Notes: a model not told the origin generated them from the sequence alone. Shown: positions 33,960 to 53,462, numbered from the stretch's first letter. The stretch is DNA of 64,000 nucleotides from a bacterium (GCA_965205865.1 CBDBHR010000028.1:288001-352000), one strand, 5' to 3'. Numbers and translations: made by a program.

Positions 33960-34039
33960 TGTCATTCCGGGCGGAGACCCGGAATCCAGGAAACGCAACC
34001 ATTTGAAATTTCGCTGGATTCCGCCTTTCGGCGGAATGA
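33960..34039. repeat. REP-like palindrome (GTCATTCC family), target of intron C
   Basis: TGTCATTCCGGGCGGAGACCCGGAATCCAG...CTGGATTCCGCCTTTCGGCGGAATGA. Confidence 0.8.
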
Positions 34040-34269
34040 GTGCGCCTGGGAAGGCGCTTAACCAGCACGGTGGAAATCCGTGCCATGGTAAACCACAGCC
34101 ATGTAGACGAAGGTAACTGCGTCGCCATGAGGCGGGGTGGAGAGCAACCGGAGGCGAAATGGTGGTCCGTAGGATAACGAACCCGATTCGGCGGCATGTT
34201 TGCGACGAGCTTGCTCATTCGTGGCGAAGTCTGAAACTCACTGATCCCGTTGCGGTGGTGGATAAAACG
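34040..34269 (+). mobile_element. Group II intron lineage C, 5' fragment only
   Basis: GTGCG 5' end; GCACGGTGGAAATCCGTGC hairpin; EBS1-like TCATTC (34215-34220) complementary to the 5' exon GAATGA; no domain V or VI. Confidence 0.75.
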
Positions 34270-34280
34270 AGGGTCAGGCC

Positions 34281-34972
34281 GTGCGCCAGGAAAGCTGGCA
34301 AGAAATAGAGAGTGAAAGTCTCTTACTCGGTAAGGCAGTAACGACCCGCCGAGTCCCCGAGTCATGAGTGGTTATTCGCAAGGATAGGCGCTAAGCGTTG
34401 ACAGGGGAGAACATAGGCTCGGTATTGAGCTCCGAAATCATAGTTTCAGGTGCTGACCTTGTAGTCTGGTGGGGAAGGCAACATCAACCGAAGGCGTTAG
34501 CGTGAGTCCCGGTCGAGCCTGGCGGAGTCAAAGACCCGGTGCATGTGTGGAAGTTTCTTGATCGGAACCTGGGAGATCCTGAAGACGACTGTCAACATTC
34601 TATTGGTAGTCGGATCGGGAAAATTAATAAATAACCCCGATATCTACGTCTTCAGGAAGTCGGACAAGTTCGTAGTAGCGATGAAGCGGCGAACAATGAG
34701 ATCATTTGTAGAGAGTAATAATGCAAAGGAAATCAACGGAGCCTGTGGAGCAAAGGGACTTGGCTGAGAGGAATTCTGCTTGCCCTCCTGTGTTCGGAAC
34801 TCAGAGGCCGGTAAAATCAGAGAGCGGTTTAAGCAGGGTGCGCCAAACGGCAACGTCTGAGCGTCTGACTCGAAGCAGGAGCCGGATGCGTTAGCAGCGC
34901 ATGTCCGGATCTGTACCGGAGGAATGACGAAAGGTGGCTGGAAACCACTATAAGTCAGTTCTTTACGGTGAC
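34281..34972 (+). mobile_element. RT-deleted group II intron lineage A, copy 1, inside palindrome 34270-35040
   Basis: GTGCG start; domain V GAGCCGGATGCGTTAGCAGCGCATGTCCGGATC; domain VI with bulged A; ends GAC. Confidence 0.9.
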
Positions 34973-35025
34973 TTTGATTAAATGAAAAGGGAGCAAAAAA
35001 ACTAGACTCGTTCCTAATCAAACAA

Positions 35026-35337
35026 TCAAAGGCCTGACCCTGTTTCAAATCCCATCCATTGCCCTCTGCGCGTATTGGATTGCCGATCTTTCCTCACGTC
35101 CTCGGCCATACAAAGAATACGGTTTGCACTTCCCTTGAGGACGTCTTCATAATCTCGTAACATGTATGAAGACGGAATAGGACCAGAATATGAAACCTCC
35201 TTGATAACCCGAACAATATCACTACGAAATTCCTCAGGCAAAGAGTCGACGACTTTTTGTTGTGTCAAACTCAGTTTTTTTTCAGGAAAGTTATTACTCT
35301 GTGGTGTTTTCTCGTGTTTTTTTGAATTGCTCATCAT
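35026..35337 (-). pseudogene. DUF2335-like membrane protein, 3'-truncated at the palindrome
   Basis: SYSGPIP....L..YE.V..GSANRIL.MAE motif; stops after RGQWMGF, where TM helices would start. Confidence 0.7.
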
Positions 35338-35736
35338 ATTTATGGATTGCTGTAAACATGTCTTTTCCTACTTGACCCCAAACATCAGATATATCTTCTT
35401 CCTTGGAAGCCGGGAAATAATTATTTATCTCAATAGCATTAAATCCCTCTACAGCCATTTAAGAATCCGGCCCAGAATGCATCCGGTGTATAACTAGATA
35501 ATTTTGCGCGATCCCATTTTATTTTTTCCATAACATCATCTCCAAGATTATTAATCTCCCTATTATATTATGAATAATTCAAGATCATGATTATACAATA
35601 TTTGTCAACAACGCAAAAGTTATGCCATCACATATTAGTGTAATGAATGCGAGAATAAATGTATTAATATTTAAATCCATTTTCATTAAAAAGCTTGAGG
35701 ATATTTACACTCCACACCCTCAAGCCTATTCATTAA

Positions 35737-36153
35737 TCAATCACACCAGGATTCTCGTTTACCACCATCATATTTTCTAGTATAGTCATTTTCCAATAAA
35801 ATATCGGAGAGGTTCTCACCATCAAGAAAAACATCACAGACCAAGCGAAAATATTTACCACGTTCGCAGTCTTTCAAATCGATCTTTGTTGCTTGAGAAT
35901 GTAATTCTTCGACAAAGTCCCTGACTTGTTTCGCACGTGATTTTTCAATATCACACTTTCCTCGTATTTCAGGAGTATCAATTCCCCTGATGCGGACACT
36001 GATTTTATCTCCAAAAATTGCAAGAATATTTGCAATACTATATGTACAAGTATCTCCATCATAACATCGGTGCCATCGAACGTCGTAAAAATCCGCGGCA
36101 TCAACCATTAATGGAAATGGAAGTGCTAGTAAAAATAAAAGGAACATTCTCAT
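35737..36153 (-). CDS. Secreted thermonuclease (SNase-like), paralog 1
   Basis: Signal peptide; YDGDT, VRIRGIDTPE and RGKYFRLV motifs. Confidence 0.9.
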   Translation of the reverse strand: MRMFLLFLLALPFPLMVDAADFYDVRWHRCYDGDTCTYSIANILAIFGDKISVRIRGIDTPEIRGKCDIEKSRAKQVRDFVEELHSQATKIDLKDCERGKYFRLVCDVFLDGENLSDILLENDYTRKYDGGKRESWCD

Positions 36154-36330
36154 AACACATCTTTGATTGGGGTTGCAATTTCGACGCGCTTCTTCCGAAG
36201 GGCGTCGGGTTATTGCAACATGACCTAATCATAGGCGAAATGTCCCGATTATTTGTCCGAACCAAAGTGGCCAAACTTCAGTTCGAAATTGGACTTTTCT
36301 ATTCATCAGGTAACCCGACAAACTGACTAA
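36154..36330 (-). ncRNA. Candidate structured leader RNA, copy A; its promoter part lies beyond the IS5, at 37257-37338
   Basis: Homologous to 57451-57707, with compensatory base changes. Confidence 0.6.
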
Positions 36331-37256
36331 GAACTTATCCTTTAATAACTTGAAAATTGGTATTTCCTGCATTATTTTTGTCATCATGTTCAACCATAAA
36401 CGCATGGAGGCTATATGGCAAAAGTACAGTCGTGGGAAGTATCTGATTCATTTTGGGCCAGAGTGGAGCCACTGATACCAAAACCCAAACGTGACCCGAA
36501 CAAGACCTACAAGCGCAAACCCGGTGGTGGTAGAAAGCCAATGCCTGCGCGCCAAATTTTCGAGGGAATTGTATATGTTTTGCGCACCGGTTGTCAATGG
36601 AGAGCCCTTCCCAAGGAAAAATATGGGAGTCCTAGTGCCATCCATGCTCATTTCATGCGTTGGAATGAAGCGGGTTTCTTTTTGTCGCTTTGGCAAGCCG
36701 GACTTGCCGAATATGATGAGATGGAAGGGATCTCCTGGAAATGGCAAAGCATAGACGGCACGACTGTCAAAGCCCCACTGGCTCAGGAAACCGTTGGTCG
36801 AAACCCGACTGACAGGGGAAAAAAAAGGGAGCAAGCGTCATTTGCTGGTTGACGGCCGTGGTGTCCCGCTGTCCCTCGTCGTAACCGGGGCGAACCGGCA
36901 TGATGTGACACAGTTGGAATTGGTCTTGGAGGAAATCGTCATTGCGCGGCCTGAGGGCATTGAACAACACCTGTGCGCAGACAAAGGCTACCACGGTGAG
37001 CCAGCATCACAGATCATTCGATCCAATGATTATGTGCCACATGTGAAAAAACGGGGTGAAGAGATTCAAGAAAAAAAAGCAAATCCCCAATACAGACCCA
37101 GAAGATGGGTCGTCGAGGTGAGCCATTCATGGTTCAACAGATTTCGCAAGATAATGGTCCGATTCGAAAAATATAATCAAACTTATCTCGCACTGCTTCA
37201 ATTGGCTGCAGCTATCATAACTTACAGGAAAGTTAATGTTATTTAAGGATAAGTTC
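36331..37256 (+). mobile_element. IS5-family element (IS427-like), 926 bp
   Basis: Terminal IRs GAACTTATCCTTTAATAAC / GTTATTTAAGGATAAGTTC; TAA duplicated on both sides. Confidence 0.92.
36415..37246 (+). CDS. IS5-family transposase in two ORFs joined by a probable -1 frameshift
   Basis: LRTGCQWRALP, IDGT, ADKGY and RWVVE motifs; GGGGAAAAAAAAGGG slippery run near 36815-36829. Confidence 0.88.
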
Positions 37257-37393
37257 TAAGTCATATTGCAATTTTAAACCTATGTTACGGACAGAGAGTG
37301 TCAAGGGATTATCTTCAGCAGGATACTAGAAGATATTCTGTAGGGATTCAGGTCTCTCCTACTGCGACCCATGCATTCCATTGAGCATTGTAA

Positions 37394-37627
37394 AGAGACT
37401 TGGGAATCACAAAAAAATCAGCTTGGCATCTTGCCCATCGACTCCGGAAGACGTGGCAGGAAGATCAAGCGTTGTTCAAAGGGCCAGTTGAAGTGGATGA
37501 ATCCTAAATTTGCGGCAAAGAAAAGAATAAGCATGCTTCCAAGAAATTGAAGAAAGGACGCGGCCCTGTTGGTAAAAGTGCCGTCGCGGGCATCAAAGAC
37601 CGGAGTACCAACAAAGTGACAGCCTAA
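37394..37627 (+). pseudogene. IS1595-family transposase fragment
   Basis: Manual translation RDLGITKKSAWHLAHRLR...GPVEVDES*ICGKEKNKH...GRGPVGKSAVAGIKDR, with an internal stop. Confidence 0.8.
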
Positions 37628-37680
37628 AAAACAGAAAGTTTATTGTTTGAAATTATTTATTTTTTGAAGGAGGATTTGAA

Positions 37681-38082
37681 ATGGATTTAAGGAAAATATG
37701 TCAAAAATTGTATCTCATAATTTTTTTTTCGCTCATATTTATTTATCCGGTTTATTCTAATGAGGGGTTTATCGATTATAAAAATGAAATAACTGAATTT
37801 TCTGTTGTTGTCACTGAAGAATCAGAATTTATTGAATTTCATGTTGAAAATGACAGTTATTTTATCAAACTGCCAATCTCTGAATTGAGAAAGACAGAAC
37901 TCACATTGAGTGAAAATGGAATATCTGATGAGAACTTATCGAAAGTTGTGGAATATATCCTGATACAAACCTTCGACTCGGTTCGTGAGGAGTCATGGGT
38001 GGGAGTCAATGATACCGAACGCTTTCAGTTTCATGTTGGTTATTTCATAGAATATGAAATACAAGGTAGGAAAGGAAATTAG
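37681..38082 (+). CDS. Hypothetical exported acidic protein; frame stays open after the stop up to the palindrome
   Basis: AGGAGG RBS and signal-peptide-like N-terminus. Confidence 0.55.
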   Translation: MDLRKICQKLYLIIFFSLIFIYPVYSNEGFIDYKNEITEFSVVVTEESEFIEFHVENDSYFIKLPISELRKTELTLSENGISDENLSKVVEYILIQTFDSVREESWVGVNDTERFQFHVGYFIEYEIQGRKGN

Positions 38083-38217
38083 AGGATTCAATTCATTGAA
38101 GCTTACACGAATGCGATTCTGATTGAGGATCATTCAATTGATAATTACGGAAATTTTGTTACGACTCCAGAAAAAAAGAGTCGTTATGATGCAAAATTAA
38201 AGAAAGGGAGTCAGGCC

Positions 38218-39823
38218 GTGCGCCAGGAAAGCTGGCAAGAAATAGAGAGTGAAAGTCTCTTACTCGGTAAGGCAGTAACGACCCGCCGAGTCCCCGAGTC
38301 ATGAGTGGTTATTCGCAAGGATAGGCGCTAAGCGTTGACAGGGGAGAACATAGGCTCGGTATTGAGCTCCGAAATCATAGTTTCAGGCGCTGACCTTGTG
38401 GTCTGGTGGGGAAGGCAATATCAACCGAAGGCGTTAGCGTGAGTCCCGGCTGAGCCTGGCGGAGTCAAAGACCCGGTGCATGTGTGGAAGTTTCTTGATC
38501 GGAACCTGGGAGATCCTGAAGACGACTGTCAACATTCTATTGGTAGTCGGATCGGGAAAATTAATAAATAACCCCGATATCTACGTCTTCAGGAAGTCGG
38601 ACGAGTTCGTAGTGCGCACTGGGCAGCGCATGATTCAGGTGGGTTCAAGTTCCACTCAGCCTGAGATCCCAGGCTGATATCCAAAAGCGGGGGTAATGCC
38701 TCGCTGGCCGGAATGTTTACCAGGGCGCCATCCTGGGCGCTTTAAGCACAATGGGAGGTCGAAAGGGCCAAATGCACCGAAGTGAACTTCCGGAGGACAG
38801 GGTGTCCACCGTGAGGTGGAATCTGAAGGGTTTGCGGAGAATCACCGGGTCGTAGTCAAGGAGGCTACTCCAGAGACGAACCGGTCGGCCAACAGCAGGG
38901 AATGGTTGAGCTTGCACTATGATGGCGAAAGCAGTTGGATTCCCCCCTGCAATACCAAGGTGTGTGCGGACGACACGGTGAGGAAGAATCATGAGTGACC
39001 CCAGGAGGACTCAGGGCGTTCTTAGGTGGCACTAGGATAAGGGACCCTATAAGCGAAAGCGAAGTGGAAACCGAAGCGTGTTGAGTAGTCGGACCATCGA
39101 ATAGTACCTGAAGCGTAGTGAGAGCTACGTGACCGAGGGATCGGCAGCAGAGTGAGCTGGGGAAGGCGATGGGCAGAGAAGGTTGGAATGAGAAAGGAAG
39201 TCAGATGAGTAAGGACAGTGAGGTGGAAAGTTCGGTAAGTGAAAGACCCAGAACTCATGGCCCGAGGAGACTGGCTGACTGGATCAATCTAACGGGAGCA
39301 AAGAAGGTTCACTCCTTAGTGGACAAGATTTACAAGAAGCTCTCCCCGAAACAAGATTATATGGGGAGTATCGGTTAGTAAATCTGATCTCACTAATTCC
39401 TTCGATTGGTCCCTTCGGCAAACGGACTTCTCTGTGAAAGCCGGATGCGGGAAAACTGCACGTCCGGTTTGGGCGGCGGACGGTGGCTAGCGGAAACGCG
39501 CCTCCTCCGACCCGACAGCGATGAAGCGGCGAACAATGAGATCATTTGTAGAGAGTAACAACGCAAAGGAAATCAACGGAGCCTGTGGAGCAAAGGGACT
39601 TGGCTGAGAGGAATTCTGCTTGCCTTCCTGTGTTCGGAACTCAGAGGCCGGTAAAATCAGAGAGCGGTTTAAGCAGGGTGCGCCAAACGGCGAATCCGAA
39701 TCAACGTTTGAGCGTCTGACTCGAAGCAGGAGCCGGATGCGTTAGCAGCGCACGTCCGGATCTGTACCGGAGGAATGACGAAAGGTGGCTGGAAACCACT
39801 ATAAGTCAGTTCTTTACGGTGAC
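38218..39823 (+). mobile_element. Group II intron lineage A, copy 2 (outer intron of a twintron), inside palindrome ~38207-39892
   Basis: Near-identical to copy 1 once the ~0.9-kb insert is removed. Confidence 0.9.
38612..39516 (+). mobile_element. RT-deleted group II intron lineage B, nested in copy A2
   Basis: GTGCG start; domain V AAGCCGGATGCGGGAAAACTGCACGTCCGGTTT; ends CCCGAC; RT relic KKVHSLVDKIYKK joined to LPETRLYGEYRLVNLISLIP. Confidence 0.88.
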
Positions 39824-40014
39824 TTTGATTAAATGAAAAGGGAGCAAAAAAACTAGACTCGTTCTTAATCAAATAATCAAAGGCCTGACCCCCTTCCTCA
39901 TAATTCCTCCTTGGAAATAATTTTACCCAAAGGGTTGACAAAGGAGGAAACTTATGAGATAATAGAAATTAGTTAATTATTTACCCGCTCGTCTTTCCCT
40001 TGAGCGTTAAAAGT

Positions 40015-40050
40015 AAACGCTATGAAATCTCCAAATTTCATAGCGTTTTT
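40015..40050 (+). terminator. Intrinsic terminator-like hairpin
   Basis: AAACGCTATGAAAT-CTCCAA-ATTTCATAGCGTTT followed by a T tract. Confidence 0.7.
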
Positions 40051-40189
40051 TATTTGTCCGGTCACTCTACAATAAAATACTGAACAATACGAGTCATTTC
40101 TTTATCCTGTTATTCAGCATCTTGTCCTTGTTCAATCGAAGTTGATGCAATCTTAGAGATAGTCAGGCAATGATTACGACCTCTAGCTA

Positions 40190-45526: not shown

Positions 45527-46228
45527 GTGCGCCAGGAAAGCTGGCAAGAAATAGAGAGTGAAAGTCTCTTACTCGGTAAGGCAGTAACGACCCGCCGAGT
45601 CCCCGAGTCATGAGTGGTTATTCGCAAGGATAGGCGCTAAGCGTTGACAGGGGAGAACATAGGCTCGGTATTGAGCTCCGAAATCATAGTTTCAAGTGCT
45701 GACCTTGTAGTCTGGTGGGGAAGGCAACATCAACCGAAGGCGTTAGCGTGAGTCCCGGTCGAGCCTGGCGGAGTCAAAGACCCGGCGCATGTGTGGAAGT
45801 TTCTTGATCGGAACCTGGGAGATCCTGAAGACGACTGTCAACATTCTATTGGTAGTCGGATCGGGAAAATTAATAAATAACCCCGATATCTACGTCTTCA
45901 GGAAGTCGGACAAGTTCGTAGTAGCGATGAAGCGGCGAACAATGAGATCATTTGTAGAGAGTAACAATGCAAAGGAAATCAACGGAGCCTGTGGAGCAAA
46001 GGGACTTGGCTGAGAGGAATTCTGCTTGCCCTCCTGTGTTCGGAACTCAGAGGCCGGTAAAATCAGAGAGCGGTTCAAGCAGGGTGCGCCAAACGGCAAT
46101 CCGAATCAACGTTTGAGCGTCTGACTCGAAGCAGGAGCCGGATGCGTTAGCAGCGCACGTCCGGATCTGTACCGGAGGAATGACGAAAGGTGGCTGGAAA
46201 CCACTATAAATCAGTTCTTTACGGTGAC
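45527..46228 (+). mobile_element. Group II intron lineage A, copy 3, inside palindrome 45516-46296
   Basis: Near-identical to copy 1; GTGCG...GGTGAC. Confidence 0.9.
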
Positions 46229-52770: not shown

Positions 52771-53462
52771 GTGCGCCAGGAAAGCTGGCAAGAAATAGAG
52801 AGTGAAAGTCTCTTACTCGGTAAGGCAGTAACGACCCGCCGAGTCCCCGAGTCATGAGTGGTTATTCGCAAGGATAGGCGCTAAGCGTTGACAGGGGAGA
52901 ACATAGGCTCGGTATTGAGCTCCGAAATCATAGTTTCAGGCGCTGACCTTGTGGTCTGGTGGGGAAGGCAATATCAACCGAAGGCGTTAGCGTGAGTCTC
53001 GGCTGAGCCTGGCGCAGTCAAAGACCCGGTGCATGTGTGGAAGTTTCTTGATCGGAACCTGGGAGATCCTGAAGACGACTGTCAACATTCTATTGGTAGT
53101 CGGATCGGGAAAATTAATAAATAACCCCGATATCTACGTCTTCAGGAAGTCGGACAAGTTCGTAGTAGCGATGAAGCGGCGAACAATGAGATCATTTGCA
53201 GAGAGTAACAATGCAAAGGAAATCAACGGAGCCTGTGGAGCAAAAGGACTTGGCTGAGAGGAATTCTGCTTGCCCTCCTGTGTTCGGAACTCAGAGGCCG
53301 GTAAAATCAGAGAGCGGTTTAAGCAGGGTGCGCCAAACGGCAACGTTTGAGCGTCTGACTCGAAGCAGGAGCCGGATGCGTTAGCAGCGCACGTCCGGAT
53401 CTGTACCGGAGGAATGACGAAAGGTGGCTGGAAACCACTATAAGTCAGTTTTTTACGGTGAC
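52771..53462 (+). mobile_element. Group II intron lineage A, copy 4, inside palindrome 52760-53531
   Basis: Near-identical to copy 1; GTGCG...GGTGAC. Confidence 0.9.

Follow-up and report, generated by a model that had tools for sequence, protein, structure and literature searches.

How do several kinds of group II intron come to lie side by side, and one inside another, each directly behind a sequence that matches its own guide? This question is raised by a 64,000 nt stretch of bacterial DNA (GCA_965205865.1 CBDBHR010000028.1:288001-352000, one strand), referred to here as the window. A preliminary description of part of it had proposed three intron lineages, A, B and C, whose exon-binding site 1 (EBS1) guides each match a repeated target, namely two families of repetitive extragenic palindromic (REP) sequences and another intron. 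The core of that proposal is upheld: three different group II intron lineages are present, each guide is an EBS1 loop pairing with the final 6-7 nt of its 5' exon, and the targets are multicopy, being two REP families and another intron. In this region, bacterial group II intron retroelements have very probably piled up by homing into multicopy DNA. From the established behaviour of the family, insertion would have begun with reverse splicing into DNA and been completed by reverse transcription.

The genome used for comparison comprises 4.74 Mb in 30 contigs and is 91.9% complete. Forty genomes of relatives were searched; the sister genome (G001) is a closed genome of the same genus. Intron boundaries were set by comparing copies throughout the genome, from 41 5' and 37 3' junctions for lineage A and by strict comparison with 33 uninterrupted A copies for lineage B. 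The Rfam gathering scores are 49 bits for RF02005, 32 for RF02001 and 40 for RF00029. Four RF02005 matches, which cover domains I-IV of lineage A, were found in the window at 34315-34537, 38252-38474, 45561-45783 and 52805-53027, all above threshold with 158-165 bits, and at looser thresholds a weaker domain V/VI match closes each of these elements. The domain V/VI model RF00029 gave one above-threshold match in the window, which belongs to lineage B, and RF02001 matches below threshold at 38805-38994 and 34121-34302 mark two further introns, B and C respectively. Coordinates of the individual features are collected in Table 1.

All coordinates and strings of the preliminary description are correct, including the A guide GGTCTG of copy 2, whose loop context TGTGGTCTGGTGG occurs again at 52953-52958. 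The C guide TCATTC was confirmed opposite GAATGA, as was the B guide ACTATGA opposite TCGTAGT inside A. Placement of the guides in the Id3 loop of domain I, which had been put forward for checking with covariance models, holds for A, where the RF02005 alignment (164.6 bits) sets the hexamer in the 9-nt terminal loop GUGGUCUGG of a hairpin with conserved GA/GAA flanks. For B and C the RF02001 alignments set the guides in the equivalent loop, at the sub-threshold scores of 27.5 and 23.9 bits. Only a small fraction of window positions pairs fully with each guide (0.0058 for A, 0.00044 for B and 0.0022 for C), and because the matching positions lie exactly at the 5' junctions the three matches are far from chance. 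At 38388-38408 we also observed that the isolated hairpin of copies with a guide starting with G can refold, GGUC of the guide pairing with GACC of the stem, and that the variant starting with A does so less well; the energy of this fold is no better than that of shuffled sequences.

Covariation of guide and target had likewise been proposed as a check, and homologues in other genomes do carry other guides, each fitting its own exon. Contiguous guide-exon pairs in register number 7 and 7 for B in two genomes, 6 for C, 4 for a C homologue from another genus and 5, 4, 5 and 3 for introns of other phyla. Among 206 mismatched guide-exon controls at least 3 pairs were reached in 4 and at least 4 pairs in 1, while all eight matched combinations score 3-7. 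This set leaves out A2 and a further lineage, F, the 5' ends of which are not well enough fixed. The C homologue, which came from the search of the 40 relatives, is 76% identical to C over 131 nt, and three of the first four guide-exon pairs are changed on both sides (UCAU../..AUGA in C, GUAG../..CUAC in the homologue). Real retargeting within a lineage is shown by this comparison. By our reading the stem that closes the loop covaries as well, with GCUU/UGGC in B and C, GCAA/UUGC in F and GCCU/UGGC in the homologue from the other genus. Public genomes were also scanned for GAGCTTGC-N7-TGGCGAA, the scaffold which B and C both carry as described; with a test that is independent of the exon (GTGCG[CT]C[CT] 166-173 nt upstream), 4 of the 120 matches listed are C-like introns, and the remainder resemble random hits to a pattern of 15 bases. 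A tetraloop-hairpin filter on the same matches was dropped, since 7 of the 120 passed and true introns were missed.

The target of lineage A can be defined to the base. By our count over the genome, GGGTCAGGCY precedes 27 of the 41 A 5' junctions and the looser GGGNCAGGCY precedes 31, and the first base of the 3' exon is T in 31 of 37 3' junctions. Farther upstream the flanks are unique at nearly every one of the 41 junctions. The motif occurs 164 times in the genome, with 28 occurrences occupied by an intron and about 136 empty. Short repeats of several sub-families are headed by it, and in many of these the repeat folds back on a second, inverted copy. All four A copies of the window lie in the left end of the same small palindromic element, the right end of which (GGCCTGACCC) is found 59-68 nt past the intron.

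The same motif accompanies transposase-like genes. A 330-aa open reading frame (ORF) with Y1_Tnp (IS200-like) and Bac_DnaA_C (DnaA C-terminal helix-turn-helix) domains lies between inverted A-family motifs about 1046 nt apart (G000:C29:722037-723082) and has about 10 copies in the genome. Y1_Tnp matches number 15 in the genome, at least 10 of them with the A-family motif nearby, and in at least three loci the 5' end of an A intron is seen in the REP on the 5' side of the Y1_Tnp gene, in the orientation of the gene. Because the motif stands in inverted pairs around Y1_Tnp genes, we read the A target as a family of REPs, or of hairpins formed by REP doublets (REPINs), with a transposase like the REP-associated tyrosine transposases (RAYTs); short palindromic repeats flanking a Y1 gene in inverted orientation, by which such a family is recognised, were found. 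Lineage A would home to the terminal motif of this family, GGGNCAGGCY before the insertion point and T after it, with the EBS1 loop R-GUCUG pairing with CAGGCY. We infer that the target sites are neutral; the A-family motif also flanks transposase genes.

All four window copies of A, like most copies in the genome, lack the reverse-transcriptase (RT) ORF of domain IV. Full-length A copies hold a 1264-nt insert in domain IV that encodes an RT of 473-477 aa (the A protein itself has 475 aa). Elsewhere in the genome six RVT_1 loci lie within A-type introns, five with open frames of 371-477 aa and one cut to 304 aa; the A protein gave no match to the Pfam maturase model. By analogy, the RT of the five or six full-length A copies presumably acts in trans to splice and mobilise the ORF-less ones. 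The copies in the window arose by deletion, at two or more different breakpoints, copy 1 differing from copy 2, which is interrupted and spans 38218-39823 as a whole. At the joint of the ORF deletion copy 2 retains about 11 nt more than copy 1 (39690-39710 against 34840-34850), so either the ORF was deleted on two or more occasions or the joint has been remodelled. Among the A copies of the genome, lengths of about 692 nt and of 702-706 nt occur, and at G000:C26:239009-240180 two A copies stand head to tail, the second beginning directly where the first ends.

The sister genome contains only about four A copies, with the guide AGCCUG, so the expansion of A is recent. Three A copies at G001:C1:1099443-1109907 have identical 30-nt upstream flanks within about 10 kb, and hence lie in a local repeat; their exon CTGGCT faces the guide AGCCUG with one U·U mismatch. 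Class names for A and B could not be drawn from protein matches to solved structures, which are too distant (best E 7.8e-45 and 1e-61).

Lineage C has a second REP family as its target. The copy in the window is a dead, truncated 5' fragment, comprising nt 1-240 of the six-domain ribozyme and 97.5% identical to the full copies over that length. Full copies elsewhere are about 811 nt long (GTGCGCC...CCCCTAT), keep remnants of both ends of a lost ORF, and match RF00029 in domain V/VI with 54.3 bits. All five C 5' junctions directly follow a REP unit, ending in GGAATGA in three cases and in GGGATGA or AGGATGA otherwise, and the 3' exon begins with CA. One C locus has a tandem duplicate that holds an empty site, which fixes the boundaries of C. 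A regular expression for the target (GGATYCC..GGRATGA before the insertion point, CA after it) matched 178 units; nearly all continue with CA and only 3 with an intron. The RAYT association of this family was sought only near Y1 genes, and a C-target unit was within 1200 nt of none of the 15 Y1_Tnp loci. Lineage C would home 3 nt past the hairpin of this REP unit, its EBS1 UCAUUC pairing with GRAUGA.

In five of six C-like sites a hairpin ends 3-5 nt before the insertion point, and the intron-binding site 1 (IBS1) is short. In its choice of a DNA stem-loop with a short IBS1, lineage C resembles the class C introns. A domain V starting with CGC is a feature of class C. Lineage C has lost its ORF, begins domain V with AGC and scores 23.9-25 bits against RF02001 (23.9 for the window copy), below the threshold.

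Within the window, C breaks off after 240 nt, within a 9-nt sequence of its own that resembles the A-family motif; the A-bearing REP element follows and the rest of C is absent. This joint is best read as recombination at the shared motif and not as a true twintron of A within C. Lineage C natively holds GGGTCAGGC, a near-perfect copy of the A-target REP motif (window 34231-34240; also in all full C copies, in G001 and in G017). There it is followed by GCATA, which resembles one REP sub-family (..GGCTTGCATAC). The likeness is due either to chance or to common ancestry of the intron segment and the REP end.

Lineage B has another intron as its home. It is inserted after nt 396 of A (..TTCGTAGT), in a hairpin between the long domain II-like stem of A and the start of the ORF, which would correspond to domain III of A. 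A site comparison covered 40 A copies, of which 33 are empty, 3 hold B and 4 hold a further element, D. Against the 33 uninterrupted copies the boundaries resolve into A(1-396), B and A(397-end), the arrangement of a twintron. Lineage B would home into the hairpin loop of A, with EBS1 ACUAUGA pairing with UCGUAGU. Of its RT, B retains codons 1-56 and 426-458. In the sister genome a full-length B with a 458-aa RT occupies the same site in an A-type intron; there the exon is TTCATAGT and the guide ACTATGG, which gives a U-A pair in place of the U·G pair seen in the window. The three B copies of the genome are 95-96% alike.

A second element, D, enters A at nearly the same place. D is an intron-like element of 908-911 nt with no ORF, begins 3-4 nt beyond the site of B, and is present in four copies (e.g. 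G000:C28:263296-264206). The D copies are identical at 911 of 911 positions (n=4), while their A hosts differ at 3-10 of 399; identical copies in diverged hosts fit separate recent insertions. The guide of D, GCUACU, is fully complementary to A nt 394-399, and the scaffold GACC..GGGGAAGGC is common to D and A. The predicted fold of the 3' end of D was uninformative. A 197-nt 5' fragment of D lies outside any A copy, at C29:45404.

Table 1. Intron lineages and repeat elements within the window
Feature	Position	Strand	Details
REP unit, C-target family	33962..33987	-	Inverted, TCATTCC..GGAATCC; found by regular expression
REP unit GGATTCC-hairpin-GGAATGA	34016..34039	+	Last 6 nt (34034-34039) are IBS1 of lineage C
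Lineage C 5' fragment	34040..34279	+	nt 1-240 of about 811; EBS1 TCATTC 34215-34220; lacks domains II-VI
A-family REP motif GGGTCAGGCC	34271..34280	+	5' exon and IBS of A copy 1; overlaps native 9-nt look-alike at end of C fragment
Lineage A copy 1	34281..34972	+	ORF-less, 692 nt; EBS1 loop AGTCTG 34463-34468; RF02005 164.2 bits
Rest of REP element hosting A copy 1	34973..35040	+	Right inverted end GGCCTGACCC at 35031-35040; same 3' flank at other A junctions
5' exon of A copy 2, ..GTCAGGCC	ends 38217	+	
Lineage A copy 2, 5' part	38218..38613	+	nt 1-396; EBS1 GGTCTG 38400-38405; RF02005 164.6 bits
TCGTAGT, IBS1 of lineage B	38607..38613	+	In loop of short A hairpin (A nt 390-416)
Lineage B	38614..39516	+	ORF-deleted, 903 nt; EBS1 ACTATGA 38916-38922; RF00029 44.2 bits at 39436-39516; RF02001 27.5 bits
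Lineage A copy 2, 3' part	39517..39823	+	nt 397-end; RF00029 31 bits at 39728-39823
Rest of REP element hosting A copy 2	39824..39891	+	Right end 39882-39891
Lineage A copy 3	45527..46228	+	ORF-less; after GGGTCAGGCT
Lineage A copy 4	52771..53462	+	ORF-less; after GGGACAGGCC; EBS1 GGTCTG 52953-52958

Several results weigh against a pile-up of guide-directed introns. Domain V/VI of lineage A scores 30-32 bits with RF00029, under the threshold of 40, if in the expected place and with E 0.007-0.02 (30.1 bits at 34877-34972 for copy 1), and the domain I matches of B and C are below the RF02001 threshold. Thermodynamic folds of the isolated guide loops are no better than those of shuffled sequences (z -0.65 to +0.54), and in two of five pieces the lowest-energy fold pairs part of the guide; such folds neither support nor refute the loop placement. 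The guide AGTCTG of A copy 1 stands beside an exon ending in C, an A·C mismatch, and single-base covariation was not found within A, where loops starting with A face T at 7 sites and C at 3 and those starting with G face T at 15 and C at 10 (Fisher p = 0.71). EBS2 and EBS3 were not located; a by-eye search of A domain I for a partner of the conserved GGG at -8 to -10 found none that is unpaired in the model. The 5' end of the window B is GCGCA and not GUGCG, and one other copy in the genome is likewise altered, while the third copy and the B copy of the sister genome begin with GUGCG. Lacking an ORF and with this altered end, the window B is probably impaired, and from the 5' consensus it is expected to splice poorly. 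The junction of D with A is one base off a clean insertion, a base being missing or replaced, and the 91.9% complete assembly contains no cognate RT for B, C or D. Finally, among contigs from four sequencing runs (two metatranscriptome, two other) over 37600-40100, no joint across A or the twintron was found, and the RNA runs showed none across B either. The single joint that skips 38614-39516 comes from a run not recorded as RNA and is identical to uninterrupted A copies, and depth over lineage A in these contigs tracks copy number.

Homing into multicopy DNA can be extended to a layered community of parasites, in which A lives in the REP ends of a RAYT family, B and D live essentially only in one hairpin loop of A, D may use the A protein, and C may be a clade outside class C that converged on stem-loops by way of REP hairpins. 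We regard this fuller picture as unlikely. One component, that the ORF-less lineages (D, perhaps B and C) are mobilised by the unrelated A protein, so that D and B parasitise A as both home and engine, is if anything still more doubtful. The identity of D in four diverged A hosts does indicate that it moved recently, a search of 40 relatives turned up no D, no matching RT is present in the assembly, and domain I motifs as well as the GACC..GGGGAAGGC scaffold are common to D and A. However, an assembly of this completeness in 30 contigs, in which repeats often go unassembled, may simply be missing a D-type ORF, much as a B-type ORF is present in the sister genome and absent from this assembly. 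In addition, D and A show no similarity around the protein-binding part of domain IV, and domain V of D is not recognised by Rfam. Words shared with A by D, B or C were considered as a sign of a borrowed protein-binding site and set aside, as these are only class-level motifs of domain I and domain V.

It is improbable, in our judgement, that the introns are passengers, carried along whenever a REP element, a RAYT unit or some larger segment is duplicated or recombined, each match to a guide being inherited from one founding insertion. Movement of this kind is favoured by an identical 45-nt upstream sequence at two A junctions (C28:358767, C29:409363), the flank common to three A copies in the sister genome, several A 3' flanks that are the same REP element, and the joint of C with A in the window. 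The three B copies, being only 95-96% alike, could have moved together with A. Against it stand upstream flanks that are nearly all unique among the 41 junctions of A, occupied sites in several REP sub-families with about 136 sites left empty, D copies identical in four hosts that are not, and the C locus with its own empty duplicate.

Least credible of all is that B and C are close relatives, one ribozyme chassis recently retargeted by a guide swap alone, for although GAGCTTGC and TGGCGAA around the 7-nt guide are identical in both and RF02001 is the best domain I match of both, these flanks largely follow the RF02001 consensus (gAGcuuGC...gCgAA) and occur with other guides in introns from unrelated phyla, the blastn match between the two is confined to 42 nt of domain V, the B protein has no significant match in C DNA (best E 0.25), and the guide lies about 300 nt from the 5' end in B against about 175 nt in C. 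Because the shared scaffold is class consensus and the two are otherwise unrelated, the retargeting that the preliminary description had seen in this pair does not hold; B and C thus represent two lineages of one structural type that have long been separate.

Separate lineages homing into multicopy DNA have counterparts in known systems. The TeI3/TeI4 introns of Thermosynechococcus elongatus (Mohr, Ghanem, Lambowitz 2010, PMC2882425) form guide-diverse families with ORF-less derivatives, home into mobile elements and make twintrons with identical inner copies; identical inner introns in diverged outer ones were there taken as recent separate insertions. The present genome is similar in its many copies, mostly ORF-less with ORF remnants, in the different EBS families at matching IBS sites, and in inner introns (here D) that are identical while the outer ones are diverged (PMC2882425). 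It differs in that the 28 T. elongatus introns go back to one ancestor, whereas at least five unrelated lineages (A, B, C, D and F) are present here. The inner intron of T. elongatus lies in the start of the domain IV ORF, whereas B and D lie in a small hairpin before domain IV, and the homes here are mainly REP elements instead of insertion sequences or genes (PMC2882425). Mobility was assayed in T. elongatus (PMC2882425), whereas that of the present introns is putative.

In Methanosarcina acetivorans (Dai and Zimmerly 2003, via PMC4424553 and PMC2882425) group II introns have repeatedly homed in a site-specific manner into others of their kind, and the flanking exons contain no host gene. 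As there, the outer intron serves here as a perpetual homing site, but the M. acetivorans sites are in the ORFs of related introns with nesting up to five, whereas nesting here is two deep and in a non-coding hairpin of an unrelated intron (PMC4424553, PMC2882425). Bacterial twintrons are known from Trichodesmium, whose genome is rich in non-coding DNA and for which sequential splicing is given in the title of the report (Pfreundt and Hess 2015, PMC4649490); by comparison, splicing of the window twintron is putative.

Class C (IIC) introns insert after terminator or attC stem-loops (PMC4424553). Similarly, lineage C and its homologues insert 3-5 nt past a DNA hairpin with an exon pairing of only 3-6 nt. 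The hairpin of lineage C is, unlike that of class C, a REP unit and not a terminator, and its AGC domain V (CGC in lineage F) and sub-threshold RF02001 score also set it apart. For Pseudomonas putida KT2440, Tobes and Pareja (2006, PMC1525189) tabulate a group II intron with REPs at 2 of 9 copies, beside REP-targeting insertion sequences. In the present genome the REP link is far tighter, holding at 27-31 of the 41 A junctions and at all 5 C junctions. It has single-base precision, for which guide pairing provides the explanation, and one of the REP families is tied to RAYT-like genes. In a limited open-access search no paper came up on an association, precise to the base, of an intron lineage with a REP motif that flanks RAYTs, and a search of that kind cannot show that none exists.

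The locus is a clear natural example of an already well-known mechanism, and the accepted mechanism is unchanged by it. Its value is that a single genome provides a small natural collection of cases in which the choice of safe, self-renewing homes by group II introns can be followed: 41 junctions of A at a REP motif, C at the hairpin of another REP, and B and D both inside A. Intron proliferation is thereby linked to REP/RAYT systems, whose equivalent sites number in the hundreds. The burst of A is recent and could be dated, and the copies provide material for studying target choice and the trans-mobilisation of ORF-less introns.

Two further elements were noticed. A true class C intron is present in lineage F, with a protein that matches the GsI-IIC RT (E 2e-120) and a domain V starting with CGC. 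Full copies follow T-rich ends at G000:C15:7059-9014, C25:23743-25704 and C26:165809-167761, and about seven shortened copies were found. Within the window, two overlapping ORFs of 145 and 150 aa lie on the + strand at 36415-37246, between two intron nests, and meet at an A-run; this pair looks like a frameshifted insertion-sequence transposase.

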